A DNA stretch of 64,000 nucleotides from an uncultured Gemmatimonadaceae bacterium (GCA_963790305.1 CAWBOC010000005.1:320001-384000); one strand, 5' to 3'; shown: positions 3,434-43,382, counted from the stretch's first letter. Translations and numbers: made by a program. The notes: generated by a model from the letters alone, not told the origin.

Positions 3434-5185
3434 GGCGCGCGCGGCAGCGTCAACGTGAACGTCGATCCCACGCCGACCTCGCTCTCCACTGAAAGATCGC
3501 CGCCCATTCCGCGCGCGAGATCACGGCTGATGGCGAGTCCAAGACCTATTCCTTCCTCGGTTCGCGTGAGCCGGGCGTTCACCTGTACGAATGGGTCGAA
3601 GATCGAGTCGATCTGGCCCGCGGGAATGCCGATACCGGTGTCCGACACGTGGAACGCGAGCGTGTCCGCACGGGGCTCGCAGCGCAGCCGCACCGATTCC
3701 GCCAGGCGGAGTGAACTTGACGGCGTTGGACAGCAGATTGACGAAGATCTGACCGACCCGTTCGCGATCAGCGAGGACGTATTGGTCCGCGCGACCGTTT
3801 TCCCGCTCGAAGGAGAGCGACTTGGCACGGAGAAGCGGCGCGACGAGAGGCTCTATCGTCGACATGAGCTCTTCGGCGGAGCGTGGCGCGATCTCGTACC
3901 GCATCGCACCCGCTTCGATGCGCGTGTAATTGAGCACCTCGTTGATTAATCCAAGGAGGTGGGTCTGGCTTCGCTTGATGCGCGCGAGGTCGTTGCGCTG
4001 CCACTCGGTCACGGGACCCCTGACCTCCATCTCCATGAGCTCGACATACCCGCCGATCGCGTTCAACGGGGTGCGCAGCTCGTGGCTCATCACGGCGAGG
4101 AAGTCGCTCTTGGCGCGGTTCGCGGCTTCGGCGTCGGCGCGCGCACGAGCCGCCTCCGCGGCCGCCTCCTGTGCTCGGCGTGTTGCACGCTCGGCCTGGG
4201 TACGTGCGGCCTCCTCACGCTCGAGCACGAGCTGACGCTCGCGGTCCACCGCCCGCACGACGACGACGCTCCGCATCACGATGGCGAGCAATACGCCGAT
4301 AGTCGTTAGGCTCAGCAGCGCGATTCCACCCTCGCGACTGACGACCGGGACTTCGCGCCCCCGAATGAAGAGCCATCCGAGCAGAAGGGGAACGACAATG
4401 GTGGCAGGCAGCAGTCGCCGCGCGAGCAACGCGCCCAGATCGGGTGCCGTGAGGAGCGCGACGTGGCCCCGATCCGGCCGGGCGAGCACCAGGCCGACAA
4501 GAAGAAACATGAAGGCGAGCGTCGTAATGAGCGCCATCCCCGCGGCGCGATCGATCGCGTAGAGCGGCCTCGCGCCATAGAGATGCCCGACCAGCGCCAG
4601 GGTCGCGATCGCGAGGCCGGTCGACGCCAGGAGTTGCGAGGGCCGCCATCCTCGCCTGGTCTCGACCTCGATCGTCAGCAACGACGCCCCCACGAGCGTG
4701 AAGCAGACCGTCGAGTTGGTGGCCATGAGGCCGACTGGCCGGTACGGAAAGAGGGCGACCCGCTCGGAAAACATCAGCCGGTCGATCCCGAAGTCGACAC
4801 CGGTAACGCGCTCGATGAACGACATGAGTCCCAGCAGCAGAACGACTCCCGCCAAGACACGGCCGAAACGAACCGCGTTGACGGGTGCGTCCTCACGTCG
4901 CAGGAGCCAGAGCGCCAGCCCGCCCATCATGAACCCAACCGACGTATTGGGCAGCATGACGATGGAATCCGGCGGCAGATATCGCAGCCACGCGATGTCG
5001 AAGGTCCACCCAATGAACACCAGGGCGCCTATCGCGATCACGACAACGGCCGCTAGCGCTGACACCCGAGAGCCCAGGCGGCGCGACGGTGCCGAAAAAG
5101 ATTCTGGTATCACGACCGTGCGATCTACTGCTTCAGGGCTTCGATGGGTGGCGGAATGTACCTGTTGACCAATCCTCGTAAGCAC
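3430..5185 (-). CDS. Membrane-bound sensor histidine kinase, split by a +1 frameshift near 3697
   Basis: About 7 TM segments, H-box [14 protein letters not shown] and N-box [10 protein letters not shown] in ORF 3521..5185; G1/F/G2 boxes ([21 protein letters not shown]) in ORF 3430..3828. Start uncertain. Confidence 0.85.
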
Positions 5186-5248
5186 GCTCTGGACCGCGGC
5201 GGTAGCTTGGGCTCACGCCTATTCCAGCCCGCCCCGAGGAGAACGCCG

Positions 5249-6328
5249 GTGACGCCAATCCGAGAACCCTTTCACGTCGGCCTCATCGGCTACGGTCTCG
5301 CTGGGGAGTCCTTCCACGCGCCGTTCATCGGCGTGACACCCGGTCTGCGACTCGCTGTCGTCGTCACCGGAAATCCGGACCGTCGGCGCGCGGCCCTACG
5401 GGCACATCCCAATGCGACCGTCGTCGAATCGGCATCACACCTCTGGGAGCGCGCGCGCGATCTCGATGTCGTCGTGATCGCCACGCCGAACCGCACGCAT
5501 GCGCCGCTTGCGATGGAGGCTCTCGCTCACGGGCTCGACGTTGTCGTCGACAAGCCCTTCGCGACCAGCGTGAGCGAGGCCCGCGCGCTCGTCGCCGAGG
5601 CGCAGCGAAGAGATCGGTTCATCACGGTGTACCAGAACCGCCGATGGGACGGCGATTTTCTCACTCTCCAACGCCTGCTCGCCGAGGATGCGGTTGGCCG
5701 TCCGCTGCGCTTCGAGTCGCGTTTCGAGCGCTGGCGTCCCCTTCCTCGAGGCAACTGGCGTGAGAGTGGAGCACCAGAAGAGGCGGGGGGCATCCTGTTC
5801 GATCTTGGAAGTCATATCATTGATCAGGCGCTCCTGCTGTTCGGTCCCGCGCTCCAGGTCTATGCCGAGCTCGATGTTCGTCGCGCTGGCGTCGAGGCGG
5901 ACGACGACTCGTTCGTCGCACTCACTCACGCGAACGGCGTGCGGTCGCACTTGTTCATGACCGCCCTCGCGGCGCAGACCGGGCCGCGGTTCCGCGTGTT
6001 GGGGAGTCGCGGCGCGTACGTGAAATGGGGAATGGACCCGCAGGAAACGAAGCTGCGCGAGGGACAGTCGCCCGATACCCCTGGATTCGGCGAAGATCCC
6101 GAGAGCCACTGGGGAATGCTGGGAGTGGGAACGGAGTTGAGGACCGTCCCTACCGAAACCGGTGCCTATCGACGATTCTACGAAGGTGTGGTCGACGCCC
6201 TGCGCCGCATCGCACCGCCGCCCGTAAACCCTCACGACGCGATCGCAGCGCTGGCCGTCATCGAGGCCGCACGCCGATCCGCCGCTGAGCGCGTCATCGC
6301 CGTCCCGAATGACGCCTCTCGGATCTAG
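5249..6328 (+). CDS. Gfo/Idh/MocA family oxidoreductase
   Basis: GLIGYGLAG Rossmann motif, VVVDKPF, YQNRRWDGDF, LFDLGSHIIDQ; GTG start after GAGGAG. Confidence 0.9.
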   Translation: MTPIREPFHVGLIGYGLAGESFHAPFIGVTPGLRLAVVVTGNPDRRRAALRAHPNATVVESASHLWERARDLDVVVIATPNRTHAPLAMEALAHGLDVVVDKPFATSVSEARALVAEAQRRDRFITVYQNRRWDGDFLTLQRLLAEDAVGRPLRFESRFERWRPLPRGNWRESGAPEEAGGILFDLGSHIIDQALLLFGPALQVYAELDVRRAGVEADDDSFVALTHANGVRSHLFMTALAAQTGPRFRVLGSRGAYVKWGMDPQETKLREGQSPDTPGFGEDPESHWGMLGVGTELRTVPTETGAYRRFYEGVVDALRRIAPPPVNPHDAIAALAVIEAARRSAAERVIAVPNDASRI

Positions 6329-6361
6329 CGACGTCGACGCCTACCGGATACCAGAGACTCG

Positions 6362-7333
6362 ATGTCCACGCCTGTCATCCCGCCACTGGCCACCCGGCGA
6401 GCTCGCCGGCGCCTGCGCCTAACGGGCGTCGTCGCCATCGTCGTGCTCGTGATCGGCATCGCCGGAAGCCTGTGGCTCAGCCGGGACCCCGAGCCGCGTA
6501 TGCTGGAGCGACGCTCTCGCCTGGCAGGGGTGACGGAAGGTCGCGCCGTTCGAGAGGGAGCCCACGAGCTGCGCGACGTGAAGCTGCGCGCGGAAAGCGG
6601 GATCGAGGTCGAGCTGACCGTCAAGCGCCCTCTGGCCGACGGTAACGCGAAGGCGCGCCGGCCGATCGCGCTCGTTCTCGGCGGTCACCGAACCGCGCGA
6701 AGCGCGGTCAAGTTCATTCCTGATGCGGGAGAGATGATCGTCGCCGCACTCTCGTACCCGTATGCCGGAGAGCCGCGCCCGGATGCACTCGAGTTCGTGC
6801 GAGACATTCCAAACATTCGGCGAGCATTCCTCGACACGCCACCGGCGATCATGCTCGCCCTCGATTACCTGCTGGCACAGCCCGACGTCGATCCCAACTG
6901 GGTCGAGGTCGTCGGCGTCAGCCTCGGCGGCCCCTTTGTCACGATCGCCGCCGCGCTCAATGAGCGCATCAGCCGCGTGTGGGTCGTGCACGGCTCCGCG
7001 GGATCGTACCGGCCGCTCGAGGTCAGCATGCGGCGTGAGATTCCGGTGCCGGGTCTCAGGCATGCCGCCGCGGCGCTTTCGGCTCTCATCATCAACCCGC
7101 GCATGGCCCCCGAGAAGTGGGTGCACCGGGTCGCTCCCAGGCCTTTCATGATGGTGAATGCGCGAGACGACGAGCGCATGCCGCGCGAGCTCGTGGAACG
7201 GCTCTTCGAAGGCGCCAATGAGCCGAAGTCGATCGTCTGGCTGCCCGGCGGCCACGTTCGGTCCAACGCCGCCGTCCTGAAGCCCCTGGTGGACACGGTC
7301 GTCGCCATGATGGCCAGCCAACCGCCACGGTAA
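6362..7333 (+). CDS. Membrane-anchored alpha/beta hydrolase
   Basis: N-terminal TM; GVSLGG nucleophile elbow; Asp (RDDERM) and His (GGHV). Confidence 0.75.
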   Translation: MSTPVIPPLATRRARRRLRLTGVVAIVVLVIGIAGSLWLSRDPEPRMLERRSRLAGVTEGRAVREGAHELRDVKLRAESGIEVELTVKRPLADGNAKARRPIALVLGGHRTARSAVKFIPDAGEMIVAALSYPYAGEPRPDALEFVRDIPNIRRAFLDTPPAIMLALDYLLAQPDVDPNWVEVVGVSLGGPFVTIAAALNERISRVWVVHGSAGSYRPLEVSMRREIPVPGLRHAAAALSALIINPRMAPEKWVHRVAPRPFMMVNARDDERMPRELVERLFEGANEPKSIVWLPGGHVRSNAAVLKPLVDTVVAMMASQPPR

Positions 7334-7518
7334 CAGCGTGCGCGGAGGAGACATCCGCGCGTCTCCCGGCACGGACACCGCCGACGATTACCTGTTCGGA
7401 AGAAAGCGCGCATCGCTCGACAGGAAAACGAGATAGGCGCTGCTTCGACGCTGATCGGGAACCCGGCCTCGCCCATGCCTTGCCTCGTAGCGACCGCTAT
7501 CGCCAACGAGGCATTTCA

Positions 7519-8445
7519 ATGCGAGCCCCCGCGTTCCTTTTCAGCGCCCTCACCGCCGCGCTGATCGTCCCCGCCACACCCGCATCCGCACAGACCACGA
7601 GCGCCGACCCCGACCCCCGGGTCTTGCTCGGGATCGAGGTCTCGATGTCGGGCACCAGTCGCGACACGCTTGGTGTCCTCGTTTCCTCCGTCGCCTCGGG
7701 AAGCCCGGCTGACCAGGCGGGACTTCAGCAACGCGAGCGCATCGCCGAGGTCAATGGCATGAGCCTGCGTGTCTCGCGCGAAGACGTGGGGAGCAAGGAT
7801 GCTGAGGATCTCGTGTTTCGGCGGCTCGCCAGAGAGTTGGAGCCCCTCAGACCCGGCAATGCCGTGAGCATGCGCGTGTACGGCGGGGCTCGACCGCGCA
7901 CCGTCACCATTCGCATCCCGGTCGAGGAGCCGGCCGTGCGTGCCCGCGACGACGGCGCTGGCGTGGTGGACATCATAGCCTCGCTGCGTGAAATGCAGAC
8001 CCGTCTGCATGAGCTCGTCTCTAACGAAAGCGGTGCGGTCCGCGACTCGCTCGCACAGGTCGAGCTCGAGATCGCGGAGCTTCAGCGCAGACTCCAGTTG
8101 CTCGAGGTTCAGCGCCGGCGGCGGATGGAGCGCGACCGTCCCCGGCGTGGCGACGACGTCGGACGTATCGATGAACCGGCGGAAAGCCTACGTGGTCTTC
8201 GCGTGACGGTTGTCAGTGACGAGCTCGAGCCATACTTCGGTGAGGGCAGCGCGCGCGGTCTGCTCGTGCTCGAGGCCGACGAGTCGTGGGCGCCCATTCG
8301 CACCGGTAATGTGATCGTGCGCGTCAATGGTGCCGCGGCCACGATGGAATCGCTCCGCGACGCGTTCGACTCGCGTCGATCCAGCGAGGTTGAGGTGCTG
8401 CGGCGACGCAGATCACTAATTCTGTCGATCGGCGGAGGTCGCTGA
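7519..8445 (+). CDS. Exported PDZ-domain protein (two PDZ-like regions around a coiled coil)
   Basis: Signal peptide; GVLVSSVASGSPADQAGL...IAEVNG; second GLLVL...GNVIVRVNG; heptad-rich linker. Confidence 0.75.
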   Translation: MRAPAFLFSALTAALIVPATPASAQTTSADPDPRVLLGIEVSMSGTSRDTLGVLVSSVASGSPADQAGLQQRERIAEVNGMSLRVSREDVGSKDAEDLVFRRLARELEPLRPGNAVSMRVYGGARPRTVTIRIPVEEPAVRARDDGAGVVDIIASLREMQTRLHELVSNESGAVRDSLAQVELEIAELQRRLQLLEVQRRRRMERDRPRRGDDVGRIDEPAESLRGLRVTVVSDELEPYFGEGSARGLLVLEADESWAPIRTGNVIVRVNGAAATMESLRDAFDSRRSSEVEVLRRRRSLILSIGGGR

Positions 8446-8537
8446 CCGGCAGTCGAGATTCCCCGCGGATGGCCCGCGGCGGCCCGGCGCTTGCCGACCA
8501 TGCGAATCCCTTAGTCAGTTTTCACTGAGGAGGACAC

Positions 8538-8897
8538 ATGGCAATCCACGATGGACTGGGAACCGGCGCCGGCCCTGCCACACCGGCGGGTGTCGACTGG
8601 ACCGCGGAAGACATGTATTGGCGCTCCAACTTCCGTGCGCGTCCGTACGTTGGCGCAGACCGGGGGTACGAAGCGTACCAACCGGGCTACCGGTATGGAT
8701 TCGAGTCTGCGAAGCGTCATGCCGGCCGGAAGTGGGACGAGATCGAGTCTGACCTCCGGAGCGGCTGGGACCGCTATGAGCATCGCGGCCAGTCCGCATG
8801 GGAGAACATCAAGGACGCCGTGCGGGATGCGTGGGATCGTGTAACGGGCGATCGGCCCCGCGGCACCGATCGCGACACCGTTCGCTCGACGTACTGA
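8538..8897 (+). CDS. Small hypothetical protein (aromatic-rich, WE..KDAVRDAWDR tail)
   Basis: Strong RBS GAGGAGG; followed by a terminator hairpin. Confidence 0.8.
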   Translation: MAIHDGLGTGAGPATPAGVDWTAEDMYWRSNFRARPYVGADRGYEAYQPGYRYGFESAKRHAGRKWDEIESDLRSGWDRYEHRGQSAWENIKDAVRDAWDRVTGDRPRGTDRDTVRSTY

Positions 8898-8917
8898 GGC
8901 TGCTCGGCGTCAGCGAG

Positions 8918-8947
8918 AGAATGGCCGCCTTCGCAGGCGGCCATTCT
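8918..8947. terminator. Hairpin between convergent genes (likely bidirectional terminator)
   Basis: AGAATGGCCGCCT-tcgc-AGGCGGCCATTCT, perfect 13-bp stem. Confidence 0.75.
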
Positions 8948-8953
8948 TGCTTG

Positions 8954-9568: not shown

Positions 9569-9603
9569 GACGCTAGTCCCGGTTTTTCCTGGCGGTCTCG
9601 CCC

Positions 9604-9993: not shown

Positions 9994-10112
9994 GAAGTCT
10001 CCTCGTCTGAATGCGTTGGCACCATACCCACGAGGCTGCGCAATTGCGCGGCCAGGTCATTGTGGGATAGCGTGTAGGCCGCCCACGCGCTCACCGCTGT
10101 CGCTCGCCACGA

Positions 10113-12501
10113 ATGACGGAAAATCCGGTCGACAATACGCCGCGGGGATGGCTTCGCGCCATCTACGATTGGGCGACGGGGACGACGACGCCACCTCCGT
10201 CGCTCGCTCCGTCGCTCGCGAGTGATGCCTCTACCGCTCGGGAGCAGCCACCAGCTCGCGTCGGACACTACGCGATCGAGCGCAAGCTGGGGCAAGGCGG
10301 GATGGGCGTCGTCTACGCCGCGCGTGACGAGCGGCTCGAGCGCACCGTCGCGCTGAAAATGATGTCGTCGCTGGCCGACGATGAAACCGCACGCCGCCGA
10401 TTCTGGCGCGAAGCCCGCGCCGCGGCGAGCGTCAACCATCCGAACATTCTGTCAGCTCTACGAGATCGGCGAGGACGCCGGCGAGCTGTTCATCGCCATG
10501 GAGCTGCTGGAGGGCGAGGCGCTCAATGCGCGTCTCCGTCGTGGACCTCTGAGCGTTTCGGAGGCGGTGCCGATTGGGCTTGCGGTGCTGGCCGCGCTGT
10601 CGGCGCTGCACGCGCGAGGGATCGTCCACCGGGACCTCAAGCCATCGAACGTGTTCCTCACCCGGCACGGGGTGAAGCTGCTCGACTTCGGCCTGGCCCG
10701 GCCCACCAACGCCGTGGCGCGCTCGCTCGACTCGGACGCGAACCTCACGCAAAGCGGGATGCTGATCGGATCTCCGGGCTACATGGCTCCCGAGCAGCTC
10801 ACGGGCGACGGTCTCGACGCCCGCACCGATGTGTTCGCGACCGGCGCGATCCTGTTCGAGATGCTCGCTGGGCGCCCGGCGTTCAGCGGCACCAACTTCA
10901 TCGACACGTTGCACGCCACGCTCCACGAACAGCCCCCTGCGCTGACTGGCTCTCCGGCCGTCGCCGCGGTCGACCGCGTGATTCGACGCGCCCTCGCGAA
11001 GCATCCCCGCGATCGACCCGCATCCGCCGATGCGATGGCCGATGAGCTACGGGGGGTTCACGGCGTCGCGGGCGATGACGCGGCGACACTGGCCCGCGCT
11101 CTGACACGCCTGGTGGTGCTGCCATTTCGCAACCTGCGCCCCGATCCGGAAACGGACTTCCTGGCCTTCAGTCTTCCCGACGCGATCGCGACATCGCTCT
11201 CCGGAATCAGTTCGCTCGTCGTCCGCTCGAGCGCCACCGCCGCTCGCTTCGCCGGCGAGTCGCCCGACCTCAAAGCACTCGCGGCGGAGGCCGACGTCGA
11301 CCGAGTCGTGATCGGGACGCTCGTCCGCGCCGGTGATCAAGTCCGGGCGTCGGCGCAACTCGTCGAGGCGCCGGGCGGAACGCTGCTTACATCGCATACT
11401 GTCCAGTCGCCGTTAGGCGACCTGTTTCGACTTCAGGACGATCTGGCGCGGCGGGTGGTGGAGGCGCTCGCGCTCCCGCTGGGACGGCAGGATACATCGC
11501 CCATGCCCGGCGCGCCGCGCGACCCGCGCGCGTACGAGTTCTACCTGCGCGGAAACGAATTGGCCCGCAGCTACGAGCACCTCGTACAGGCGCGCAACCT
11601 GTATCAACGGTGCCTCGAGATCGATCCCAGTGTCGCGCCCGCGTGGGCGCAGCTTGGCCGCTGCCATCGCGTGATCGGCAAGTACATCGAGGAAACCCCC
11701 GACTCCGAGGACCGGGCCGAAGCGGCGCTTCGCCGCGCGCTCGAGCTCAATCCGCGTCTATCACTGGCGCACAAATTCTACGCGCAGCTCGAAGCCGATA
11801 CCGGCAAGGCGCGTCGGGCGCTCGTGCGGTTGCTCACCCAGGCGAACCGACATGGAAACGATCCGGAGCTGTTCGCGGGACTCGTCCACGTCTGTCGCTA
11901 TTGCGGACTGAACGAGCAATCGATCGCCGCCCACGAAGAGGCTCGGCGTCTCGATCCGAATGTGCCGACCAGTCTCGAGCAGACCATCCTGATGACCAGT
12001 GACATCGAGCGACTGCTGGCCGTGGAGCCGCCGGTGTTGGCAGGAAGTGGCGACCAGGGGATCCGCATCATTGGCCTGGGTCTCGCGGGCCGTCGCGACG
12101 AGGCCCGCCGGGCGTTGATCGCCATGCGCGGGACGTCACACCTCCCGCTATTCCAGGCATGGACCGACTATCTGACGGCGTGGCTCGACGGACGCGGCGG
12201 GGACATGATCGTGAACATGTCGGCGTTCAACAATGTGAAGATCATGGACGACCCGGAGGCGATCTTCCAGGAAGGCTGGCTCCTCTGCGACGCCGGCGAG
12301 CACGAGCGCGGCCTCGAGTATCTGCAGCGCGCCGTCGCCAAAGGGTACTCGGTCGCCCCCACTCTGGCTGCCGCGCCGGCGTTCGATACGTTGCGGAGCA
12401 CGCTCGCGTTCCAGGCGGTGCTGGCGCAGGCTCGGGCAGGATGCGAGGAGGCGCTCTTGGCGTTCCATGAGCACGGCGGCGAGCGGCTGCTTGGCCGGTG
12501 A
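10113..12501 (+). CDS. Ser/Thr protein kinase with TolB-N-like and TPR regions, split by a +1 frameshift near 10447
   Basis: LGQGGMGVVY, VALK, HPNI in the first ORF; HRDLKPSN, DFGLA, YMAPEQ, LVVLPFRNL and TPRs in the second. Confidence 0.9.
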
Positions 12502-12525
12502 TGTGCCGTTAGGCGGAGTTTCACC

Positions 12526-12985
12526 ATGAAAACGCTCGCTCGCCAACGCGACAAGGCGGAGCTCGTTGACCGGTTGAGGGCCCTGCGTCCGGACAGCGTC
12601 CGTCGCTGGGGACGCATGTCGGTGCACCAGAATGATCTGTCACCTGTGCGACGGCTTTCGTATGGGAACGGGGGAAAAGCCCGTCCGCAGCGTCACCACC
12701 CCGTTTCGGGGCACCATGCTCAAGTGGTTCGCGCTGTACGGGCCCGTCCGCTGGCCCCGAGGCATTCGCACGCGGCCGGAAATCGATCAGGACCGGTTAG
12801 GCACCACGCCCGTCGAGTTCGCGGCGGATGTCGCGCAGCTCGAGGCGCTGCTGGACCGGGTCACTGCGCAGCCTCGGGATTTCGACTGGCGCGCGCACCC
12901 GCTGCTCGGCAACATGTCCGAGGCGGCCTGGCTCCGGTGGGGCTACCTGCATGTCGACCACCATCTTCGTCAGTTCGGAGCGTAG
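12526..12985 (+). CDS. DinB-like (DUF1569-type) protein, split by a +1 frameshift near 12631
   Basis: RRWGRMSVHQ|MICHL...HPLLGNMSEAAWLRWGYLHVDHHLRQFG. Confidence 0.8.
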
Positions 12986-13071: not shown

Positions 13072-15781
13072 TTAGTCCACCCTCAGCGCTTCCGTCGGCT
13101 GCACCCGCAGCGCGCGGGCGGTAGGCACGACGCAGGCAAGGGCGCAGACACCGAGCATCAGGATCGCGTACCCGACGAGCAGTGCGATGTCGCCGGCCGT
13201 GAGCCCCGGGGGCATGGTCCCGCTGAAGTGGGTCGTGTTGCGAACGCCGAGCGAGGCTACGGCGATCAGGATGCTTCCCGCGATCACGCCGAGGGTGACC
13301 TGCGTCAGTGGCCGCCTGAAGATCGACGCGATCACTCGACGCGCGCTCGCACCCAGTGCCACCCGCACCCCGATCTCCCGCGTACGACGTGCGACGGTGT
13401 ACGACAGCACCGCGTAGATCCCCGACAGCGAGAGCAGAAGGGCGACCGCCGTCAGACCGGCAATGATTCGTGTCCACAGGCCCAAGAGCCAGAGCGTGGA
13501 GCTCGTCACCTGGTCGAGGCGCGTCGTCTGCTCGACCCGGAGCGACGGATCGACCGCCATTGCCAGCTCGCGGACACGTGGCGCGATCGACAGCAGGCCG
13601 CCGGGGCCATGCACGATCATCTTGACGGCGCCCTGGCTTCCCGGAACGACTGGCAGGTACACCCCAGCGGCCCGCTGGGGCATTGCGACGCTTGTCATGC
13701 CGAGCTCCTTCACCACGCCGACGATCTCGTACCACGGCAGTTGCGCCGCGCTCGAGTCGGACATCTGCGACGGGCGCATGCGCACGCGATGACCGACCGG
13801 ATTGCGTCCGGACATCACGAGGTCGACGAAGCCTTGATCGACGATCACGACGCGAACGTCGGAAGAGAGATCACCGCTCGTGAAGGCGCGGCCCGCGAGC
13901 ATGGGCACGCGCAGCACGTCGAAATAGGAACGATGGACCGATGCCGTGGTCACCCACGCGGATGGGCTCCCCGGCAGGGACACCATTTCGACGAGGCGAG
14001 CGGCGTGATCCTCTGCCGGGAACGCGTCGACGAATGTCACGCCGGCAACCCCCGGCTCGGCTTCCAGCCGCTGGCGCAGCGCTTCGAGGGAGGAGCTGAT
14101 CCGGGTGCCTGGGGCGGCGGTCCCCTCGGGGGTCACCGTTTCCCCCAGCGCACCGTCAACGCCGAGGGTCACGCCGAGGTACTCCTCGGCTGCAAAGCCA
14201 GGGTCGTAGGACGCGATGCGCCTGCTCTCGCCGCGAATGAGCATCACGACCGCCGGCAACGCGACGGTGAGCGCGATCTGCGCGACGATGACCGCCGTCC
14301 ATACGCCGCCGAAGCTCACGCCACCACCGCCGGCGCTTACCCCGCGAAGCCGCGTTCCGAGGCCGCGGGTGATCTTCCGCGCCGGCATTACCCCCGCCAC
14401 CACCGCCCCGACCATCGCGAACGCGAGGGCGTTCGCGATCGTCTTCGGCGACAGATTGAAGTCGTACCAGAAGGGCAGCCGCCCGAAGTTCATGACGAGA
14501 TACGGCTCGCCCCAGCGCGTCAGGGCCAGCTGCGCCGCCGCCAGCCCGACCACGGCCGCAACGCCGGCGAGCACCAGCGCCTCGACGAAGAGCTGCGTCA
14601 CGATGCGGCGAGGGCTCGCGCCCAGGGCGCTGCGGATGAGAATCTCCGTCTCCCGCGACGCCGCGCGCGCGAAGAGGAGGAGTGCAACGGTGCTGCACAC
14701 GACCACCACGAGCGCGACGACGAAGAGGTAGGTCAGTCCCATCACCGCCATCGGATCGGGGCTGTTCACATTGAACTGCGTGTACGGAAGCACGTGCGGC
14801 TGGAGCTGCGCGTGCGTCGTCGGATGTTCCGTGGCGAGGCGCTTGCCGATGGTCGCCAGCTCCGCCTGCGCGGTCTCGAGCGTCATGCCGGGCGCGAGGC
14901 GGCCGAAGATGGTGATCGGGGCGCCGCCTAACGGCTGCACGCCGGCGACATCCGTGCGCAGCGGCAGCCACAGCTCGTGTGATACAGGGAACGCATAGCC
15001 GTCCGGCATCACACCGACGACCGTCGCGAAGCGGTTCCCGACCTTGACGGTGCGTCCGACGATCTGCGGGTCGCGATCGAAGCGCCTGGTCCACACCGCG
15101 TGGCCGAGCACGATCACCGGCGCCGCGCCCGCAAGTTCATCCGACGCCGCGAGCACGCGGCCGAGCAGCGGGTGCTCGGGGGCGATGCGGAACGCGGATG
15201 CGGTGATCTCCGCCGCGACCGCGGGCAGCGTGGTGCCGTCCGCGCCCACCAGATTGATGCTCGCGTCGCGAAAGGCGCTGATGTCGGTGATCGACCGCAT
15301 GGAGCGCCAGAACTGGTAGTCGTACAGCACGCGATCCTCGTCCTGGCCCGTCTTCAGATCCCAGTTCTGGATCCTCACGATGCGATCGCCGTCCGGTAGG
15401 GGCAGCTCGGTGCTGGTCAGCATGTCGAACATCTGGAAGGTGATGGCGCCGAACCAGAATGCCGAACGCCATCGCCAGGACGCCGACGATGGTGAGCCCC
15501 GGATATTTCACGAGCATTCGGACGCCCAGCTTCAGGTCGAGCGACAGTCCGTTGAACCACGCGGTACCGCGGCCTTCGCGGAGCGTCTCTCGATGCTGCT
15601 GCGCGCCGCCGAAGGTCACGAGTGCGCGACGTCTGGCTTCGGCGTGTTCGAGCTTCTGCTCGCGCATCAGCCGCTCCGTCTCCATCTCGATGTGAAAGCG
15701 GATCTCGTCGTCGATCCTGGACTCGGCGTCGCGTCGGGCGAGGAGGCGCAGGCGCGCGCGAGCGGCGTGGAACCACGTCAT
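13072..15781 (-). CDS. Duplicated MacB/FtsX-type ABC permease (ADOP-like), split by a +1 frameshift near 15458
   Basis: N-terminal IDDEIRFHIEM...EARRRALVTFGG prefix; two MacB-FtsX repeats; RTREIGVRVALGA; QPTEALR terminus. Confidence 0.88.
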
Positions 15782-22800: not shown

Positions 22801-24528
22801 TTACAGCCCCCGGAGATTCCGGCGCCAGATGGCGCGGACAGCACCCAGGGACCAGCCCGCCGGCGCCGCGACGTTGGACGTAACTTGCGTCGGCCGGAAG
22901 ACGCTGGAGCGAGTTGGGAAGTAGCTCTTTGTCCCTGCGTCGACAACACGCTCGAAACAGTACACGAGATGGTCGGAGCCGTTAGGCCGGTAGGTAGATG
23001 GATATCCGCCAAAAAGTCGGCAGCTTCGAATCGTCCCGCCAACGTACGAGCCTGGGAAGTGAACCGCATCGAACGCCTCATTCGCCGGATCGGTCAGGTC
23101 GTACAGCATCGACGCCACAGGACCCTCGATGATCGATCCGTCGCCAGAGGAGTAATAGGCGTTGGATTCAATGTTCGGGAGAAAATACCCGACATCAGCG
23201 CCAAACGTGACGACGGCATGATAGTCGGCAAACCCCTCTCGGAAGGCGCATCCCAGCGTGCCGGGTCCGTAGATGTAGTGCGGGTCAGGACAAGGCCCAC
23301 CGTTGTGGTCATAGCCACCAAGGCCGCCGTAGTGCATCGCGTGTCCGTACTCATGCGCCTGCGTGAACGCACCGTAGGGTGAGTTGAACACCGCGCGGTT
23401 GTTGCCGGCGGTCGCGATCTCAATACGCTCCGGAGAGGGAAAGTACCTGCTCACCGGGATGGTGTTCAGGAGAGCGACGCTAACTCTGCCTCGCGAAGCG
23501 CTGAAGAAGGCACGCGAGGCAGGAATGATTCGCGTCATGTTGACATAGACGTGACTGGGATCAGAGGGGAGAATGATCGTCTCGAGAGCGACGCTGCAAT
23601 CCCTGCCGCCATACGAGTAGCGCCCGTTTTGGATAAAGACATCCGGGTTACCCAGGTCGAGATAGCTCTCCACTCGCGTGTTCGGGTACGAGTAGCAGGG
23701 CGCCGGGACCAAGCCATTCGCGTCGGCGATAGCGCTCCACGTTCCCAGGAGTGTGCCGTCGATGGCGTCGTATTCCTCAAAGTAGAACCAGGCTCCTGCG
23801 ACGGGTCGATACACGCCCAGCTCTGAGTGGTAGTAGACAAACTGAAATTGTGCGTTGTCGACCGCTTGGGCCGACGGATCGTCTCGCGGTGTCGCGCCTG
23901 GTGCCTTGTGAGCTGCCGTCAGCCGGAACGGACCTGGCGAAGGCACGAATTGTTTCTCGAAGGTGACCGCTTCCTGAGTGAGTGTGACACCGCCGCCTCG
24001 TTCGCTGACCCGAACCCACACCTCCTTGAACTGCGTGTGGTGTATCGCGACGCTGCCCTCGAAGTCGGGTTCCGATGACCGCTTCACCACAATGGCGAGA
24101 ACACGGTAGACGCCAGCCGCGGGAATCGTGATCCTGGCGTTTGCCTCGAGCTCCGCACCGGCGGGTAGAGGCGCTCGTTGTTCCGAGACTGAGCCAATGG
24201 TGAGACCAACCGGACTCCGATCGACGCGCCAATTTGTCTGGCGGGCGAACTCGACCTCCGGCAGCACAATGCGAAAGTCGACCTCCGCCGTGGACAAGAG
24301 ACCGCGTACCCAGGCTCTGACCTGAAAGGGCTCTCCTGGCTTCAATGAGCCAGCAACCGACACGTTCAGATGGAATCTGTCGCGGGCCTGAGGCTCCAGA
24401 TGATCGTCCGCAGTTACGTCAGGTCGGTCCTGCTCCAGGATCGGTGCGATTGGCGCGGCTTCATCGCTACAGCCACCAAGAACCAGCGCCGCACCCACAA
24501 GCGACGCCACGCAGCGAGCAACTCTCAT
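22801..24528 (-). CDS. Lipoprotein with HExxH zinc-metallopeptidase motif
   Basis: RBS GGAGG; lipobox LGGC; AHEYGHAMH with downstream FREGFADY. Confidence 0.7.
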   Translation of the reverse strand: MRVARCVASLVGAALVLGGCSDEAAPIAPILEQDRPDVTADDHLEPQARDRFHLNVSVAGSLKPGEPFQVRAWVRGLLSTAEVDFRIVLPEVEFARQTNWRVDRSPVGLTIGSVSEQRAPLPAGAELEANARITIPAAGVYRVLAIVVKRSSEPDFEGSVAIHHTQFKEVWVRVSERGGGVTLTQEAVTFEKQFVPSPGPFRLTAAHKAPGATPRDDPSAQAVDNAQFQFVYYHSELGVYRPVAGAWFYFEEYDAIDGTLLGTWSAIADANGLVPAPCYSYPNTRVESYLDLGNPDVFIQNGRYSYGGRDCSVALETIILPSDPSHVYVNMTRIIPASRAFFSASRGRVSVALLNTIPVSRYFPSPERIEIATAGNNRAVFNSPYGAFTQAHEYGHAMHYGGLGGYDHNGGPCPDPHYIYGPGTLGCAFREGFADYHAVVTFGADVGYFLPNIESNAYYSSGDGSIIEGPVASMLYDLTDPANEAFDAVHFPGSYVGGTIRSCRLFGGYPSTYRPNGSDHLVYCFERVVDAGTKSYFPTRSSVFRPTQVTSNVAAPAGWSLGAVRAIWRRNLRGL

Positions 24529-33327: not shown

Positions 33328-33332
33328 AAGAC

Positions 33333-33425: not shown

Positions 33426-35927
33426 CTTTGGCGCTTTTCATCGGCTTCCGCGGCTTCGCCCCCGCGCCGCCGGTCGGACCGTTCCTCGATCCCGTTCACG
33501 GTGTGTGGGCGGTTGCGCGCGGCTCTGAATTATCGGTGCGCAATGCGGGGCACGTGCCGGCGCTAGGCGCTGACGTCCGAGTCATCTACGATGACCGCGG
33601 CGTTCCCCACATCTTCGCCACCTCCGTCGAGGACGCCACGCGAGCCCTCGGCTTCGTCGTCGCACGCGACCGGCTCTTTCAGATGGAGCTCGCGACGCGC
33701 GCCGCCGCCGGTCGTCTCACCGAGATCGCCGGAGCGCGTGCGCTCGAGGTAGACCGAGCGCAACGATCGCTGGGCTTACCCTGGGCCGCCGAACGAAAGC
33801 TCGCCGCCATTGATACGACGAGCGCCGGATGGCGCCTGATGAAGGCGTACGCCGAGGGTGTAAACGCGTGGATTGGAAACATGGGCGAGGAGGATGTGCC
33901 GCTCGAGTACCATTTGCTCGGCGTGCGTCCGTCGCGTTGGGAACCGGTGCAGTCGATTCATCTGCTCAACCGCATGGCGTGGACGCTCGCGCACGGCGAC
34001 ATCGAGCTGCGGATGCGTCAGGTGGAGGCGCTGGTCGGACGCGAAGCGACGGCGGCGCTCTTTCCGCGCAACAGCCCGATTCAGGAGCCGATCGTGCCCA
34101 ATGGGCGGCGGGAGCCGCGAGTCGATGTGTCGACGCTTCCCGCCCCACGAATGCCAGACGCGCGCGAAGCCAATGTCATCAGCGCGCTCGACGGTTTCCG
34201 GGAGCGGCTTCGCCTCATCGACGCCGGGCTGGACGAGCCCGGGGATGCGCTCGGAAGCAACAACTGGGCTGTGTCGCCAAGCCGCACGCGGGATGGTCAT
34301 GCGCTGCTCGCGGGCGACCCGCACCTCGAGCTCACTCTCCCGTCCATCTGGTACGAGGCGCACCTCGTCGTTCCCGGTGAGATCGACCTCTATGGCGTGA
34401 CCATTCCGGGCTCTCCAGGCATCGTCATTGGGTTCAATCGCGATGTCGCATGGTCCTTCACCAACGTCGAGTCCGACGTCATGGACTATTTCGTCGAAGT
34501 CGTCGACGACCCGCGGCACCCTACGCGATATCGGCTCGATGGCGTGTGGAAACCGCTCGGATCGCGGGTTGAGCGCTACCGCGACAAGCGCGGCGACGTC
34601 GTCGCCACCGACACGGTGTTGTACACGCACCGCGGCCCGCTCACGCGAGAAGGCATGCTCTGGATCTCGACACGGTGGACGGCCCACGACACGACCAACG
34701 AAAGTGACGCGCTTGCGCGCGCCGCGCGCAGTCGTTCAGTACAGCAGTGGCTGGACGCGATGGCGACCTTTTCCGTGCCGGCGCAGAACGGCATCGTCGC
34801 CGACCGATCGGGAACGATCGCGATTCGCTCGACGGGTCGCTTTCCCATCCGCGCTCCTGGCGCACGCGGTGACAGGCTTCAGGACGGCTCATCGACCGCC
34901 AACGATTGGCGCGGTGCGTTGCCGCTTTCGCGCTATCCCTTCGCCATGGATCCGGCGCAGGGCTACCTCGCCTCGGCCAACCAGCAGCCGGTCGATCCTC
35001 GCGTGGACTCGACGTACCTCGGCGCGCACTGGTACTCGCCGTGGAGAGCGATGCGCATTAACGCGCTGTTGCGCGTCAATGCCAGTGTCACCCCTGAGGC
35101 AATGCAGCAGTACCAAACGGACCCTGGGAGTGCCCGGGCCGAGGCGTTCGCTCCAGCAATGGTTGCTGCGGCGGCGGCCATTCGTGCTTCGGGGCGAGGC
35201 GATCCCACGCTCGATACCGCCGCACGGCTGCTCGCGGAATGGGACCGTCGATACACGAAGGAAAACGAGCACGCTGTACTGTTCGAATCGATCATGAGCG
35301 CGCTGCAGGAGCTCGCCTGGGATGAGCTCGCTCGGCCGGCCCGGCCGGTGGTGCGAAATGAGCGTCGACGCGCCGTGCGTGCCCGCACCTCACCCCCGCG
35401 AGTCGATACCCCAGCCGACCAGAATGCTCGCTCTTCTGCTGCGCGATCCGTTGAGCCCCTGGTGGGACGTCCGCGGAACGCAACAGATCGTCGAGCGACG
35501 TGACGACATCCTTGCTGCCGCAATGCGCGAAGGATATCGGCGTGTGCGCGAGCGCCATGGCAGTCCTGCCAATGGAAGCTGGCGCTGGGAGCGCGTGCAC
35601 CACGCGAACATTTACCACATTCTTCGCCTCGAACCCCTGTCCCGGTTGGATGTGCCGGTTCAGGGGGGGCCATCGACCCTGAGCCCGTCATCGGGTGAAG
35701 GCCGATTCGGCGCCAGCTGGCGCATGGTCGTCGAGCTCGGCCCCACCGTTCGGGCGTGGACGATCTATCCTGGCGGGCAATCGGGAAATGCCGCCTCCAG
35801 TCGTTATGCGGACCGGGTAGCCCGCTGGTCGGCCGGAACGCTCGACCCCGTGCTCCTTCCACGAGCGGAAGGGGAGATTCCGGCGGACCGCATCGTCGCT
35901 CGGCTTACGCTCTCGAAAGAGCACTAG
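33377..35927 (+). CDS. Penicillin acylase family Ntn-hydrolase, split by a +1 frameshift near 35423
   Basis: DDRGVPHIFA, ARDRLFQM, GSNNWAV, GDPHL, SANQQP; C-terminal GASWRMVVEL, YPGGQSGN in the second frame. Confidence 0.9.
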
Positions 35928-36277: not shown

Positions 36278-36394
36278 TGTTCGCCTTGCCTCGAAGCGGC
36301 CGGTGACCCTAACGTGAGTGCGAGCGCGGCAGATCTTAACGTGCCGCCGGACGACGCGTCTACCTGGGCGTCTTCCTTCCACTAGGACGGTCCC

Positions 36395-37189: not shown

Positions 37190-37194
37190 AGAGC

Positions 37195-37255
37195 CAATGC
37201 GGAATGCGGAATAGGAGCTCCTCACTCCTTGTTCCGCATTCCGCGTTCCGCATTG
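37195..37255. repeat. Heptamer-built inverted repeat (GGAATGC type) overlapping the mutS 3' end
   Basis: CAATGCGGAATGCGGAA ... TTCCGCATTCCGCGTTCCGCATTG. Confidence 0.85.
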
Positions 37256-39856
37256 ACCTCGTTGACTAGCTCGCCAAGCAACTGAATCGCCTGCAGCGGC
37301 GTCATCGCGTTCGGATCGAGGGATCGCAAGCGTTCGACGACCGGATGTGGGGCGGTGGGGAGCGAGAGGCTGAGCTGCTCGTCAGGCGCCGCCACGTGCG
37401 CTTTCCCGCTGGCGGAGCTCGCCGCCACGAGAATGACCACCCTCGAGCAGCCGGAGAATCCCCCGCGCTCGCGTCAACACTGCCGCCGGAAGCCCCGCAA
37501 GACGACCAACCTCGATGCCGTAGGACCGGTCCGCCCCGCCCGGTCGGAGCCGGTGGAGGAACAGCACTTCGCCTCCAACGTCGCGAACATCCACCGTGTA
37601 GTTGCGGACTCCAGCGAGCTCATCGGCCAGCTGCGTTAGCTCGTGATAGTGCGTGGCGAAAACCGTCTTGCACCCTACCGCATCATGCAGATGCTCGCTG
37701 ACCGCCCACGCGATGGACACTCCGTCGTACGTCGACGTCCCGCGGCCAATCTCGTCGAGCAGCACGAGGCTCCGCCGAGTCGCCGTGTGCAGGATGGCGC
37801 TCGTCTCCGACATCTCCACCATGAACGTGGACTGACCTCGTACGAGATTGTCGCTGGCCCCAACACGCGTGAACAACCGGTCGACGACACCGAGTCGCGC
37901 GCGCTGTGCGGGCACGAAGCTGCCGATCTGCGCCAACAGCACGATGAGCCCGACCTGGCGCAGAATCGTGGACTTGCCGGCCATGTTCGGACCGGTGAGC
38001 ACGATGAGGCGCGCGTCCTCCGTCAGCGTGACGTCATTCGGGATGAACTTGTCCCGAGGCATCATGCGCTCGACCACCGGGTGCCGCCCCGCCGTGATCT
38101 CCAGCGCGAACTCGTCCGTCATCTCGGGCCGTGTGTAGCCCTCTCGCTCCGCGACCTCGGCAAGCGCCGCCAGCACATCCAGCTGCGCCAGCAGCGAGGC
38201 GGCACACTGCAGACGGGCGATGCTGCGTCCCAATCGCTCCCGCAACGCTTCGATTAGCACTCGCTCGCGGGCCTCGATGCGCTCGGCGGCCGTCAGCACC
38301 TTCTCCTCGAAATCCTTCAGCTCCGGAGTGACGTATCGCTCGGCGCCAGACAGGGTCTGGCGGCGCTGATAGTCCGGGGGGACGAGATGCGCATTCGAGT
38401 TCGTGATCTCAATGTAATACCCGAACACTCGGTTGAACCCGACTTTGAGCGATGAGATGCCCGTCCGCTCTCGTTCTCGGGCCTGGATCCCGGCAATGCC
38501 ATCCCGTCCACCATCACGGATCGCCCGCAGCTCGTCCAGCTCCGCATCCACACCCGCGCGTACGGCCGGCTCGTCACCGATCGTGGCCGGTGGCCGTTCT
38601 ACGAGAGTGCGTGTAACCTCGTCCGCCAGCTCCGCGCATCCGTCCCACGTGCCAAGCACGTCCGCCAGCACCCCGCGCGGAGCCATTCGCCGAACTGCTG
38701 CCTCCACCGCCGGCATTCGCCCTAACGACGCTCCCAGGGCACCGATCTCCCGTGGAGTGGCACGGCCAGCCGCTGTCTTGCCCGCGAGCCGCTCGACATC
38801 GCGTACGCCATCGAGCGCATCGCGCAGCGCGTGCCGGGAGATGAGATCGTTCGCCAGGGCCGCCACCGCGTCGAGTCGGCGATCGATCGCTTGGCGATCG
38901 ACGAGCGGCGCGAGGATCCATTGGCGCAGCAGGCGCGCCCCCATTGGCGTACTCGTCCGATCCAGAACGCCGAGCAGTGTGCCGGAGATGTCCCGCCCGC
39001 GCATCGATTCCACGAGCTCGAGATTGCGTCGCGTCATCTCGTCGATCGGCATCGTCGAGCCGGCGCGTTCAATGACTGGACGGGCGAGATGGGGAACGCC
39101 TGCGGGCTGTAGCTCTCGCAGGTAGCGAAGCAGGGCGCCGGCCGCTGCGATCGCAAGGTCATCGCCCGGGCCGATCCCGAATCCCTCCAGGGAATGCACC
39201 CCGAATTGCCGGGCGAGCTCGGGCCGCGCAAGGTCGGCGTCGAATTCCCACGGCTCGCGCTCGGTGACGAGCGCGTCTTCCTCACGTCCGGGTGGGCGCA
39301 CCGCGTTGGGGGCGCGTGCGCCGCGTGGAACGACGACCTCGGTTGGGGAGAGCCGCGCGAGGATCGAGTCGAGATCTGCCAATGCGACGATCGCGAGCCG
39401 TGTCTCTCCAGTGGACACGTCCGCCGCAGCCAGCCCGACTCGATCGTCGCGGACGATCATCGCGCAGAGGAAATTGTTGCGCGCGCCCTCGAGCAGGTCA
39501 TCGGAGAAGGCGGCGCCTGGCGTAATCGTCTCGATCACCTCGCGGCGGACAATCCCCTTCGCGAGTCGCGGATCCTCCACCTGCTCGCAGATGGCGACCC
39601 GGAATCCGTGCTTCACGAGCCGGCGGAGGTATTCGTTGACTGCCTTCACCGGGACTCCAGCCAGCGGCACGTCGGAGGCGCCACCGTTATGCCGCGCGGT
39701 GAGCGTGAGGCCGAGCACACGGGATGCCACTTCCGCATCCTCGTAGAACATCTCGTAGAAGTCACCCATCCGGAAGAAAAGAATCGCGTCCTGGTGACGC
39801 GCCTTGATCTCCCGATACTGCTGCATGAGGGGCGTTGACGCCTCCCGCGTCGTCAC
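37222..39856 (-). CDS. mutS: DNA mismatch repair protein MutS, +1 frameshift near 37432 in the C-terminal linker
   Basis: TPLMQQY, FFRMGDFYEMF, TGPNMAGKST, DEIGRGTST, SYGIEVG; tail QLSL...LDPNAMTPLQA in ORF 37222..37440. Confidence 0.96.
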
Positions 39857-40752
39857 GGCGATTCGGCCTCCGTCACGAATGCCTCGATTCGTTTCGCCTT
39901 GAGCGAGCGCGCGGCAGCGGCCGCCGCATCGCGCGACGCATATCGTCCAATGCGCACCCGCCACAGCGCCCCGACCTTGACCACGCGCGGAGCCTGCCCT
40001 TGCGCGCTCAACTGACGATGGCGGGCGTCGGCATCCGCGCGGTTCGCGTACGCACCGATTTGCACAGTGTAGGCGGTCGCGCCACGTGCAGGTGGGCGCT
40101 GAGCCGGCGGCGTGGCGACGGCTCCTGGTCGCGCCGGCATGGCCCGCGTCGACTCTGCCGACGTCGTGCGCACGACGACGGTCGTATCGACTCCCTCGCA
40201 GCGCTGCGAGTAATACTCGAGCTGGTTCCGCATCTCAACAGCCTCAGCGGGCGTGTTGCGACGGGAGTCCTCCAGTCGCGCGCACGCACGGGGAAAGTTG
40301 CCCGCGTCGAAATGAACGCGCGCCATCCAGAAGCTTGCGCGCGCACGTGATGGCCCGGTGGGATGCTCGCGCACGACTCGCTCGAGATGTTGCATGGCCT
40401 GTGATCGGTCCCCGCGCGCCAGCTCGAGCTGGGCCAGACCAATGAGCGCGCTCTCCGCGCGTCGCGACACCGGGAACTCAATGATGATGCGCTTGTAATC
40501 ACGCTCGGCATCCGCCGCGGTAGCGGCCAGGGCGGCTCGCCAATACAAAGCCTCGACGTAGCGTGGCGAGCCCTCGGGCGCCGCCGCTAGCTCGCGCGCA
40601 ATGACCGCGCGACCCTCCTGGCCACGGCCCTCGACGACGAGGCGTTGCGCTGCGAGAAAGGTGGTGTCGGTGCTCGTGCTATCCGATTGCTGCGCGGAGA
40701 GGGCAGCGAACGGCGCAATCGAGAGACAGAGGATGCCGAGAAGACAATGCAT
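39853..40752 (-). CDS. Exported TPR + SPOR domain protein
   Basis: Signal peptide; YbgF/BamD-like TPRs; YTVQIGAY...WRVRIGRY SPOR motif. Confidence 0.85.
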   Translation of the reverse strand: MHCLLGILCLSIAPFAALSAQQSDSTSTDTTFLAAQRLVVEGRGQEGRAVIARELAAAPEGSPRYVEALYWRAALAATAADAERDYKRIIIEFPVSRRAESALIGLAQLELARGDRSQAMQHLERVVREHPTGPSRARASFWMARVHFDAGNFPRACARLEDSRRNTPAEAVEMRNQLEYYSQRCEGVDTTVVVRTTSAESTRAMPARPGAVATPPAQRPPARGATAYTVQIGAYANRADADARHRQLSAQGQAPRVVKVGALWRVRIGRYASRDAAAAAARSLKAKRIEAFVTEAESP

Positions 40753-40773
40753 GAGACGTATCGGTGAACCTGG

Positions 40774-41844
40774 TTAGGCTGCTGCGCGCTCGGGGGAGCA
40801 AATGGCGAGAATCGTCGTGGCGATCACCCGGTCCTCCGTGGAGACCCGTGTGTCCTTGAGCGCAATGTCGGCATCGTACAGGAGCCCGAGCGCGCGATCC
40901 ACCGCTCGTACATCCCATCGTTCCACATCGCGCACCCAGGCCCTCACGGCATCGCCCCACGGACGGCCGGTCATGACGCTCCCGCCGGATTTCAGAAACT
41001 TCCAGTATTCGGACTCCAGTGCACGGCTGGAAGTTCCCGCCGCACGGAGGGCCGCACCGTAGCCGAGCGCCAGCATTTGCGCGGTGAGCGCCATCACGAC
41101 CGGGACGCCGCCCATCTTCGGCTGCTCCATCACGTGCGGAAGCACGGAAAGGGAGCCAGGAGCATCTCGTTGCGCCACGCGATCGAGCAGGTCGGCCAAT
41201 GTTTCTCCACGGCGCACCCCCACAACTGCTGACACGGCGTTCTCGTCGATCGTTGCCCCCGACCCCGACACATAGCTCGCCAGCTTGTCGATTTCCCCCG
41301 CGAGCGCTGGCAGATCGTTACCTACGATGCTGTGAAGCATCGCGCACGCCTCGGGGGTGATCGTGGCCCCGTGCTCCTCCTTCGCGTGGTGAGCGATCCA
41401 CTTGGGCAGACGCTCATCGTCGAGCGGGGCGAACTCGACCAGGCACGATCGGGCACGCAGGTCGTCGTCACTCTTCTTCGACTCGCCCGCCGGGGCGACC
41501 ATCACGAGCATGAGATCGGGCGCCGGCTGCGCGAGGTACCGCGTGAGCGCGCCGCGCGTGTCCTTCTTCATCGCTTGCACATCACGCAATACGACGACCC
41601 GCCGCTCGGCCATCATTGGAGGCGTACCCAACAGCGAGCCCAGCGATTCCGCATCGAGCTCCGATGCGCTGCGGATGTCGAGGTTGAAATCGCGAGTAGC
41701 CGGATCCACCGCGCTGGCGAGGAGCTCGCGAAGCGCGTCCTCCTTCAGGTAGTCATCGGCGCCGTGGAGATAGTAGACCGGCTCGAAGGGACCACGCGCT
41801 CGGATGGCCTTTCGCAGCGCCTTCTCGGCGTCAGGGGCGGGCAT
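40774..41844 (-). CDS. holA: DNA polymerase III delta subunit
   Basis: PVYYLHGADDYL, TPPMMAERRVVVLRD, VGNDL..LAGEIDKL, ADIALK. Confidence 0.9.
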   Translation of the reverse strand: MPAPDAEKALRKAIRARGPFEPVYYLHGADDYLKEDALRELLASAVDPATRDFNLDIRSASELDAESLGSLLGTPPMMAERRVVVLRDVQAMKKDTRGALTRYLAQPAPDLMLVMVAPAGESKKSDDDLRARSCLVEFAPLDDERLPKWIAHHAKEEHGATITPEACAMLHSIVGNDLPALAGEIDKLASYVSGSGATIDENAVSAVVGVRRGETLADLLDRVAQRDAPGSLSVLPHVMEQPKMGGVPVVMALTAQMLALGYGAALRAAGTSSRALESEYWKFLKSGGSVMTGRPWGDAVRAWVRDVERWDVRAVDRALGLLYDADIALKDTRVSTEDRVIATTILAICSPERAAA

Positions 41845-41860
41845 GGCAGGAATATACGCG

Positions 41861-43382
41861 CTAGGGTGGACCGTAGCCCGTATTCACGCCGTTTCCGCAT
41901 GGCGCAGCAACGGGTGCAGGGCCAGGCGCGTCCGAATCGCCCAATTCATCGCGAAGCGCTTCCATGCGTGCACGGAGCTCACCGACCATGCGTGCGTGCT
42001 CGCGCCGGCCGGCAAGGTTGTTGAGCTCGTCCGGATCGCTCGCGAGGTCGTACAGCTCCCACTCCTCCGGATGCTCCCAGAAGTGAATGAGCTTCCACCG
42101 CGCCGTTCGCACGCCTCGATGTTTCCGCACGCAATGCTCGGCCGGGTACTCGTAGTACTCGTAGAGAAACGCGTCGCGCCACGGTGCGTTTGGTTGCCCG
42201 CTGAGTATCGGCACCATGCTGCGACCATGCATCCAGCCCGGAACGGGAATACCCGCAAGCTCGAGCAGCGTCGGCGCGACATCGACGTTGAGCATCATAT
42301 GCGAGCGGTCCACGGTACCGGCACGAACGCGGGCGGGAAAGCGCACGAGCATCGGCACCCGGATCGATGGCTCGTACATCAGGCGCTTGTCGAAGAGCCC
42401 GTGCTCGCCGAGGAAGAACCCGTTGTCCGAGGTGTAGATGATGATCGTGTTCTCGGCGAGACCGTCGCGATCGAGTGCGTCGAGCAGTCGGCCGACGTTC
42501 TCATCCACCGACAGCAGCACGCGATAGTAGTTTTTCACCAGCTGCTGAAGGTTGAGTCGCTTGCGCTCGCCAGCCGGCAGCGACGGATCGACGCCGCGAT
42601 CGCGAAAGTCGGGCATGTCGGCGATCGCCATCTCGGCGCGCCGAAGCGCCTCCGGCCGTCCCGCGAGCTTGTCTTCGAACGTCCTCGGTAATGGGATCTC
42701 GACGTCTTCATAGGTGCGAGCGAAGCGCTCCGCCGGCATCCACGCCCGGTGCGGCGACTTGAACTGGTAGAGGAGGCAGAACGGACGATCCCGGGGCCGG
42801 TCGCGCAGAAACAACAGACCTTGATCACCCACAATGTCGTCGGCATGCCCACGAAGCTTCATGCGCATACCGTTCGCGATCAATTCCGGATCGTGGTAGA
42901 TGCCCTGCCCGGGAAAGACGGCCCACCGATCGAACCCGCGCGGCTCGGATCGCAGAATGCCACTTTCCGATCAGCGCGGTGTGGTAGCCAGCGCTCCGGA
43001 GCAGGTCGACGAAGGTGGGTTGCTCAGGGCGAAGGCCGGGCTGGTTGTAGTACTGCGGCCCGCCACCGTTCGTAATGACCCCGTGGGCATGCGAGTACAA
43101 TCCGGTGAGTATGCTCGCGCGGCTGGGAGCGCACAGTGCGTTGGTGACGAACGCATCGGCGAAGCGCACACCCTCAGTAGCGATGCGATCGATGTTCGGC
43201 GTGCGCAGAATCGGGTTGCCGGCGACACTCAGCGCATCGTGCCGCTGGTCATCGGTCATGATGAACACGATGTTCGGCGGCGTCGCGCGATGCGGCTGCG
43301 ACGCCGCCAGCGCATTCGGATCGAGCCGAAGCGTCGCGAGCGCGCCGAGTGCCTTGAGTGCTTCGCGGCGCGAGAGGGACAT
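41861..43382 (-). CDS. Tat-exported sulfatase, split by a +1 frameshift near 42956
   Basis: SRREALK Tat motif, PNIVFIMTDD, CAPSRAS (CxPxR), GKWH, YTSDNGFFLGEHG, ELYDL..DP.E. Confidence 0.92.

Follow-up and report, generated by a model that had tools for sequence, protein, structure and literature searches.

In a 64,000-nucleotide window (contig C5, 320001-384000; "the window" means this whole stretch) of the assembly of an uncultured Gemmatimonadaceae bacterium (GCA_963790305.1, here G000), seven genes are each broken by one extra base. These frameshifts are errors of the assembly consensus that concentrate at the word MGATG/CATCK (M = A or C), likely by way of adenine methylation and miscalls in the reads of one strand. 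The pattern is real in the assembly; as biology it is an artefact, and likely a hint of an undescribed N6-methyladenine (6mA) motif. The assembly comprises 4.31 Mb in 13 contigs and is 94.3% complete, and homologue names indicate its affiliation with the Gemmatimonadaceae. Insertions and substitutions were counted against the congener G004, of which 2.45 Mb of approx. 4.0 Mb was used in 140 regions; these covered 2.11 Mb of G000, with 2.08 Mb aligned between the two genomes and 48% of G000 compared. Judging from the error types, the source data were presumably native nanopore reads.

Insertions and substitutions at a short word

Clean one-base gaps between the two genomes are strongly lopsided, with 517 insertions and 180 deletions in G000, and three-base gaps are balanced (106 versus 103). 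Among the insertions, no word stands out more than AGAATG, with 33 of 687 copies gapped, i.e. 4.8% against a mean of 0.18% (p ~1e-34). It also ranked first in an ab initio scan for frame changes, where 22 cases were seen and 3.5 expected among 296 candidates. An earlier note on the window had proposed that the extra bases are motif-specific errors, and the genome-wide enrichment bears this out, though most insertions (459/517) lie at no motif. Doubling of the A in AG[A]TG (brackets mark the doubled base) affects 33 of 3342 sites, or 1.0%, compared with 0-0.16% in 23 other contexts tabulated. Broken down by the preceding base, the counts are 19/707 for C, 13/1618 for G, 1/717 for A and 0/300 for T. 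The wider motif RGA(A)TS, which the same note had drawn around all seven sites, fails because doubling at AG[A]TC (2/6128), GG[A]TG (4/5743) and GG[A]TC (3/6652) is far rarer; CG[A]TG is doubled at 13 of 13120 sites.

In a second mode of insertion, new here, AGATG gains one base at its 5′ edge, in most cases a G (27 insertions versus 0.82 expected per position). Together the two modes account for 58 of the 517 insertions. In both, the inserted base adjoins its transition partner, in 31/31 doubled-A cases (by definition of the class) and in 23/27 cases at the 5′ edge, compared with a share of 0.51 for random insertions. Error-dense patches hold 16% and 11% of the two motif classes, close to the 15% expected, and 36% of the other insertions. 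No reciprocal AGAATG gap was found on the G004 side of the alignment. Clustering of motif insertions was not established (19 pairs within 10 kb versus 12.7 expected, p 0.06), and neighbouring motif insertions showed no shared orientation. The motif did not emerge from observed/expected counts of k-mers over the whole genome, and pattern counts across five genomes were too coarse to resolve so small an effect.

The strongest asymmetry among 69,526 isolated substitutions concerns a related word. CGATG in G004 corresponds to CAATG in G000 in 572 cases, as opposed to 246 in the other direction, and for non-synonymous changes the ratio is 77 to 6. The excess comprises 71 non-synonymous and 215 synonymous changes, compared with 407:799 in sampled sites, and is thus mostly, though not wholly, blind to codons. 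It depends on the orientation of the contig: on the plus strand of G000 contigs the ratio is 405:99 and on the minus strand 167:147 (Fisher p 3e-16). The plus-strand excess recurs in all 11 contigs that have such events, with either sign of GC skew and in either orientation of the G004 contig. Since the strand on which an assembler happens to write a contig has no meaning for the cell, the G-to-A excess at CGATG is a consensus artefact. Cytosine deamination or a replication-strand bias is ruled out as its source, as the excess tracks the way in which contigs are oriented, irrespective of GC skew. There is little or no effect with A, G or T in first position or C in last, and with CGATG removed no other context clearly stands out among 1509 tested (best p ~1e-5). 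TCGA, considered as a separate motif, largely overlaps with CGATG. By adding CGATG to AGATG, we infer the common motif MGATG/CATCK.

These observations could be joined as follows. If the reads of the two strands disagreed about evenly at the motif, one reporting G and the other A, a consensus that kept both letters would create the two insertion modes, AGAATG (which contains AGATG and AAATG) or GAGATG (which contains AGATG and GGATG). A consensus that instead always settled on one letter, A rather than G (wrong) and C rather than T (right), would produce substitutions that depend on orientation. At CGATG it is indeed the G corresponding to the one beside the added A that gives way to A, almost exclusively where the contig is written in that orientation. 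The mark itself would be 6mA.

Several other words and regions were noted along the way. The palindrome CACGTG shows a weaker G-to-A asymmetry (41 versus 10; 25:5 on the plus strand), which is not significant given the number of contexts tested; it may be a second modified word. CCTAA/TTAGG is the most over-represented 5-mer of the genome (1741 versus 716 expected) and is not an error hotspot. As an error word, CCTAA/GTTAGG was dismissed, with nearby indels that are bidirectional, apparently mostly intergenic, and no longer significant once the main motif is removed. One-base insertions without the motif abound in patches (as many as 21 within 13 kb of alignment) at C6:125000-175000 and C1:100000-125000 and further at C5:775000-800000, C7:75000-100000 and C8:100000-125000. 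Such patches probably reflect low read depth, and gene calls there are unreliable.

Genes affected in the window and beyond

All seven extra bases reported in the earlier note are present in G000 and absent from its congeners, and each word was found in its place (Table 1), as were intact CAGATG copies at 22826, 32920 and 33680. At the mutS site, the gap against the congeners falls on the motif. Public contigs at least 97% alike were placed on positions 2500-22400 of the window (19.9 kb), with none among those listed spanning 3697 or 10445. Their sole indels are at 12631 and 15458, where the extra base is left out. The first is covered by a 213-base contig with three other differences, the second by contigs from two runs of one sample. 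For positions 30000-46000, contigs of 85% likeness were available, and the three motif sites are not among the 12 of 20 indels listed. Removal of the extra base lengthens the longest frame at six sites; at the 12629 site the frame goes from 809 to 786 aa, shadow frames misleading the measure.

The histidine kinase site stands apart. Its extra base is real in the sense that G008 and G005 have one base less, but the position assigned to it is ambiguous, as G008 reads GGA-ACG and G005 GGA-TCG. It is probably an ordinary background insertion because its context doubles at the background rate (3/6652). The window as a whole is unrepresentative, with 6 of 102 motif sites struck compared with approx. 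1% genome-wide.

Table 1. Positions of extra bases, related sites and candidate methyltransferase genes (window coordinates unless a contig is given)
Feature	Position	Strand	Word	Observation
Histidine kinase gene, extra base off motif	3695..3700	-	GATTCC (GGAATC on minus strand)	HisKA and HATPase_c in different frames
Candidate G-to-A miscall, non-synonymous	5821			G004 has CGATG
Candidate G-to-A miscall, non-synonymous	6959			G004 has CGATG
Ser/Thr kinase-TPR gene, extra base	10445..10450	- (AGAATG on minus strand)	CATTCT	One-base gap vs G004 at 10448; Pkinase match divided between two frames (1-62 / 61-259)
Small DUF1569-type gene (DinB-like in the earlier note), extra A	12629..12634	+	AGAATG	One-base gap vs G004 at 12631; DUF1569 match weak, E 1e-4
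ADOP-family duplicated permease gene, extra A	15456..15461	+ (gene on minus)	AGAATG	One-base gap vs G004 at 15458; G004 orthologue open over 966 aa
Intact CAGATG (the window has 96 intact AGATG sites in all)	22826..22831	+	CAGATG
Penicillin-acylase-family gene, extra A	35421..35426	+	AGAATG	One-base gap vs G004 at 35423; PF01804 split 1-552 / 518-671
mutS, extra base near 3′ end	37430..37435	+ (gene on minus)	AGAATG	Base absent in 7/7 congeners; MutS domains I-V
Sulfatase gene, extra A	42954..42959	+ (gene on minus)	AGAATG	One-base gap vs G004 at 42956; PF00884 split 1-103 / 143-301
Stand-alone D12-class adenine methyltransferase, 368 aa	G000:C10:191806-192909			PF02086 at 5e-22; DPPY motif
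Eco57I/IIG-like (DrmMI-like) methyltransferase, intact	G000:C7:232989-236084			NPPW and DPACGSG motifs

Beyond the window, 323 of the 517 insertions fall within frames called coding in G004. Of the motif insertions, 46 of 58 lie within open G004 frames, including rpoC, dnaE, rplO, asnS, purH and selA; searched against NCBIfam at 1e-20, 16 of the 46 frames gave no match. Because motif-linked insertions strike rpoC, dnaE, rplO and asnS, these genes are not pseudogenes. That the genes are intact in the organism, as the earlier note had proposed, is supported. The extra bases are absent from congeners and near-identical contigs. For true pseudogenes one would look for essential genes that are spared and for lesions confirmed in independent DNA, and neither was found.

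Some further sites deserve mention. One doubled A apparently lies in a tandem DnaA-like ATPase gene (C9:49930), whose G004 orthologue is open, with 638 aa and two DnaA stretches. Within the window, a one-base gap relative to G004 falls on a stop/start junction at 31906-31911, where the sequence resembles the motif (GAATG). The gap does not appear in a 385-base public contig that differs at one other place, so the G000 sequence is real here. At 43467, off the motif, one public contig leaves a base out, which may be an eighth error or a strain difference. The short stretch 16373-16440 is matched by very deep contigs of 47-48 bases (depth up to 266) and is probably a repeated intergenic element.

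Candidate methyltransferases

A genome search for modification genes, as the earlier note had advised, yielded two intact adenine methyltransferase genes and no support for the dnd or dpd systems named there. The D12-class enzyme shares PF02086 and DPPY with the Dam-like N6-adenine methyltransferases and differs in standing alone. Its best PADLOC matches are type II methyltransferases (MTase_II and oMTase models, 1e-67). The gene lies between those for a CoA-transferase III and an ECF-type sigma-70 factor, without an adjoining restriction enzyme gene as in FokI- or SfaNI-like type II pairs, and a sequence search gave no solved relative. Matches occur in 64 of 150 family genomes, and in 47 of the 150, about a third, they are strong (E < 1e-60). 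The IIG-like enzyme, in turn, is followed by an SNF2 helicase gene (C7:232989-237581) and has matches in 145 of the 150 genomes, a constancy unusual for a defence-type gene. Among the genomes counted for either enzyme, G023 and G042 are unpublished, and no conclusion depends on these two alone. Despite this adjacent pair, the locus is not a class I DISARM system by gene content, as no DrmB (DUF1998, PF09369) was found in the genome, which is 94% complete. Family searches likewise gave no match to PF01555, PF00145 or HsdS, and a motif scan of all frames returned 13 matches, read by eye, with no further obvious DNA methyltransferase.

D12-class enzymes favour targets with a GAT core, as seen in Dam, FokI and SfaNI. 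Because of this preference, which is the only basis for the ranking, we place the D12-class candidate first, and it may well be the writer of the mark, with the chances slightly against it. The family-wide IIG-like enzyme, an Eco57I-type methyltransferase followed by its SNF2 helicase, is an unlikely source. Its gene is intact and nearly universal in the family, and IIG-type enzymes typically mark only one strand of asymmetric words, but a GAT core is typical of the D12 class. Furthermore, the motif does not occur in the methylome of Gemmatirosa kalamazoonensis, a strain whose possession of this enzyme or of the same specificity was not checked (PMC3974934). That the writer is an enzyme missing from the assembly is improbable.

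Competing explanations and implications

Errors of this class are already known. Liu et al. described strand-specific C-to-T and G-to-A errors in R10.4.1 assemblies and traced them to modification by means of amplified DNA; one of the error motifs, from Acinetobacter pittii, is C(6mA)TCTC (PMC11610603). Eight false C-to-T calls at C(6mA)TCTC are given in another report (bioRxiv 10.64898/2026.01.14.699587), and PMC10687267 and PMC12392509 describe the same class of modification-linked errors. The A. pittii case resembles ours in its short motif, in the G-to-A/C-to-T type, in affecting some sites only and in a similar word with a CATCT core. In contrast, the evidence here comes from the assembly alone, includes +1 insertions, concerns MGATG/CATCK and shows its strand effect in the orientation of contigs, not in reads. 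In Listeria, errors at GCAGC/GCTGG, addressed by Modpolish, are likewise a lineage-specific pentanucleotide revealed by comparison with close relatives, although they are mismatches whose cause was demonstrated by amplification (PMC10687267), whereas ours are known from assembly comparison only. Modification is favoured because strand-specific G-to-A errors have been published at methylated sites, which is a close likeness and not a measurement on this DNA. For this group, we found no published mention of the motif MGATG/CATCK. Our literature search, with subscription papers and REBASE largely outside its scope, returned no paper with this motif in the phylum or with the frameshift version in metagenome assemblies, and the supplements of Blow et al. 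hold no 'Gemmat' entry.

Several observations weigh against methylation at one joint motif. AGATG shows no excess of substitutions (138 versus 132) and CGATG few insertions, and only approx. 1% of the AGATG sites are struck. Doubled-A insertions are balanced with respect to contig orientation (15 versus 16; those at the 5′ edge, 8 versus 19), and insertions off the motif, too, sit beside a transition partner more often than random ones (0.63 versus 0.51). In 16 public sequencing runs, only 0.05-0.17 of sampled G000 words were found per run, and none reached half. The G. kalamazoonensis methylome comprises RGATCY, ATGCAC and CCAGN7TCA, all 6mA and each more than 99% methylated (PMC3974934); RGATCY, from the same phylum, has a GAT core, but none of the three equals MGATG/CATCK. 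Moreover, a non-palindromic word differs between strands, so that basecaller bias in unmodified DNA could be strand-specific as well.

That basecalling or polishing alone is biased at this context is nevertheless unlikely, and the same applies, at most slightly less so, to the absence of any modification at all. In favour of such a bias, many insertions are motif-free (459/517), and an A-to-G/G-to-A bias persists in amplified nanopore reads (bioRxiv 10.64898/2026.01.14.699587). Against this stand the sharp specificity for the word, with little or no effect at AGATC and CGATC, the lack of a clear second context and the occurrence of strand differences above 0.35 in amplified R10.4.1 reads at a false discovery rate below 1e-6 (PMC11610603). 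A modification other than methylation, such as phosphorothioate or 7-deazaguanine, is very improbable. Its genes could be missing from the 94%-complete assembly, and among published errors +1 insertions are not the most frequent form, but the G-to-A form is the usual error at methylated sites. Of the Dnd system, no DndB was found and DndD only far below cut-off. For Dpd, the one PF01702 match is a full-length housekeeping TGT, without a second divergent copy (dpdA). A search of the genome for DUF4007 (SspB-like) gave no match, nor did the control genomes. Real frameshifts, be they pseudogenes or programmed or slippage sites, are scarcely credible. Near-identical DNA could be compared at only two of the seven sites and came from other samples; yet rpoC, dnaE and rplO are struck, the base is absent in congeners and near-identical contigs, the related substitution follows the arbitrary orientation of contigs, and the sites are neither homopolymers nor known slippery words.

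Consensus errors linked to adenine methylation offer the best account, and a probable one, and they have practical consequences. In the 48% compared, 323 or more insertions break a frame, which extrapolates to approx. 650 or more genome-wide, and G-to-A miscalls add several hundred false substitutions. Where this assembly suggests that a gene is lost or a residue altered, the claim needs checking. Whether a substitution depends on the orientation of contigs is simple to test, and the answer tells consensus artefacts and mutation apart even where no reads are at hand. Should the mark be real, it provides a candidate motif and enzyme for a soil phylum for which we found one measured methylome. 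Tentatively, a stand-alone Dam-like methyltransferase might write at MGATG/CATCK a non-palindromic mark on adenine that has not been described before and is legible from public assemblies alone. If this D12 reading were true, methylomes of uncultured lineages could be mapped without raw signal, via insertions and a substitution that flips with orientation.

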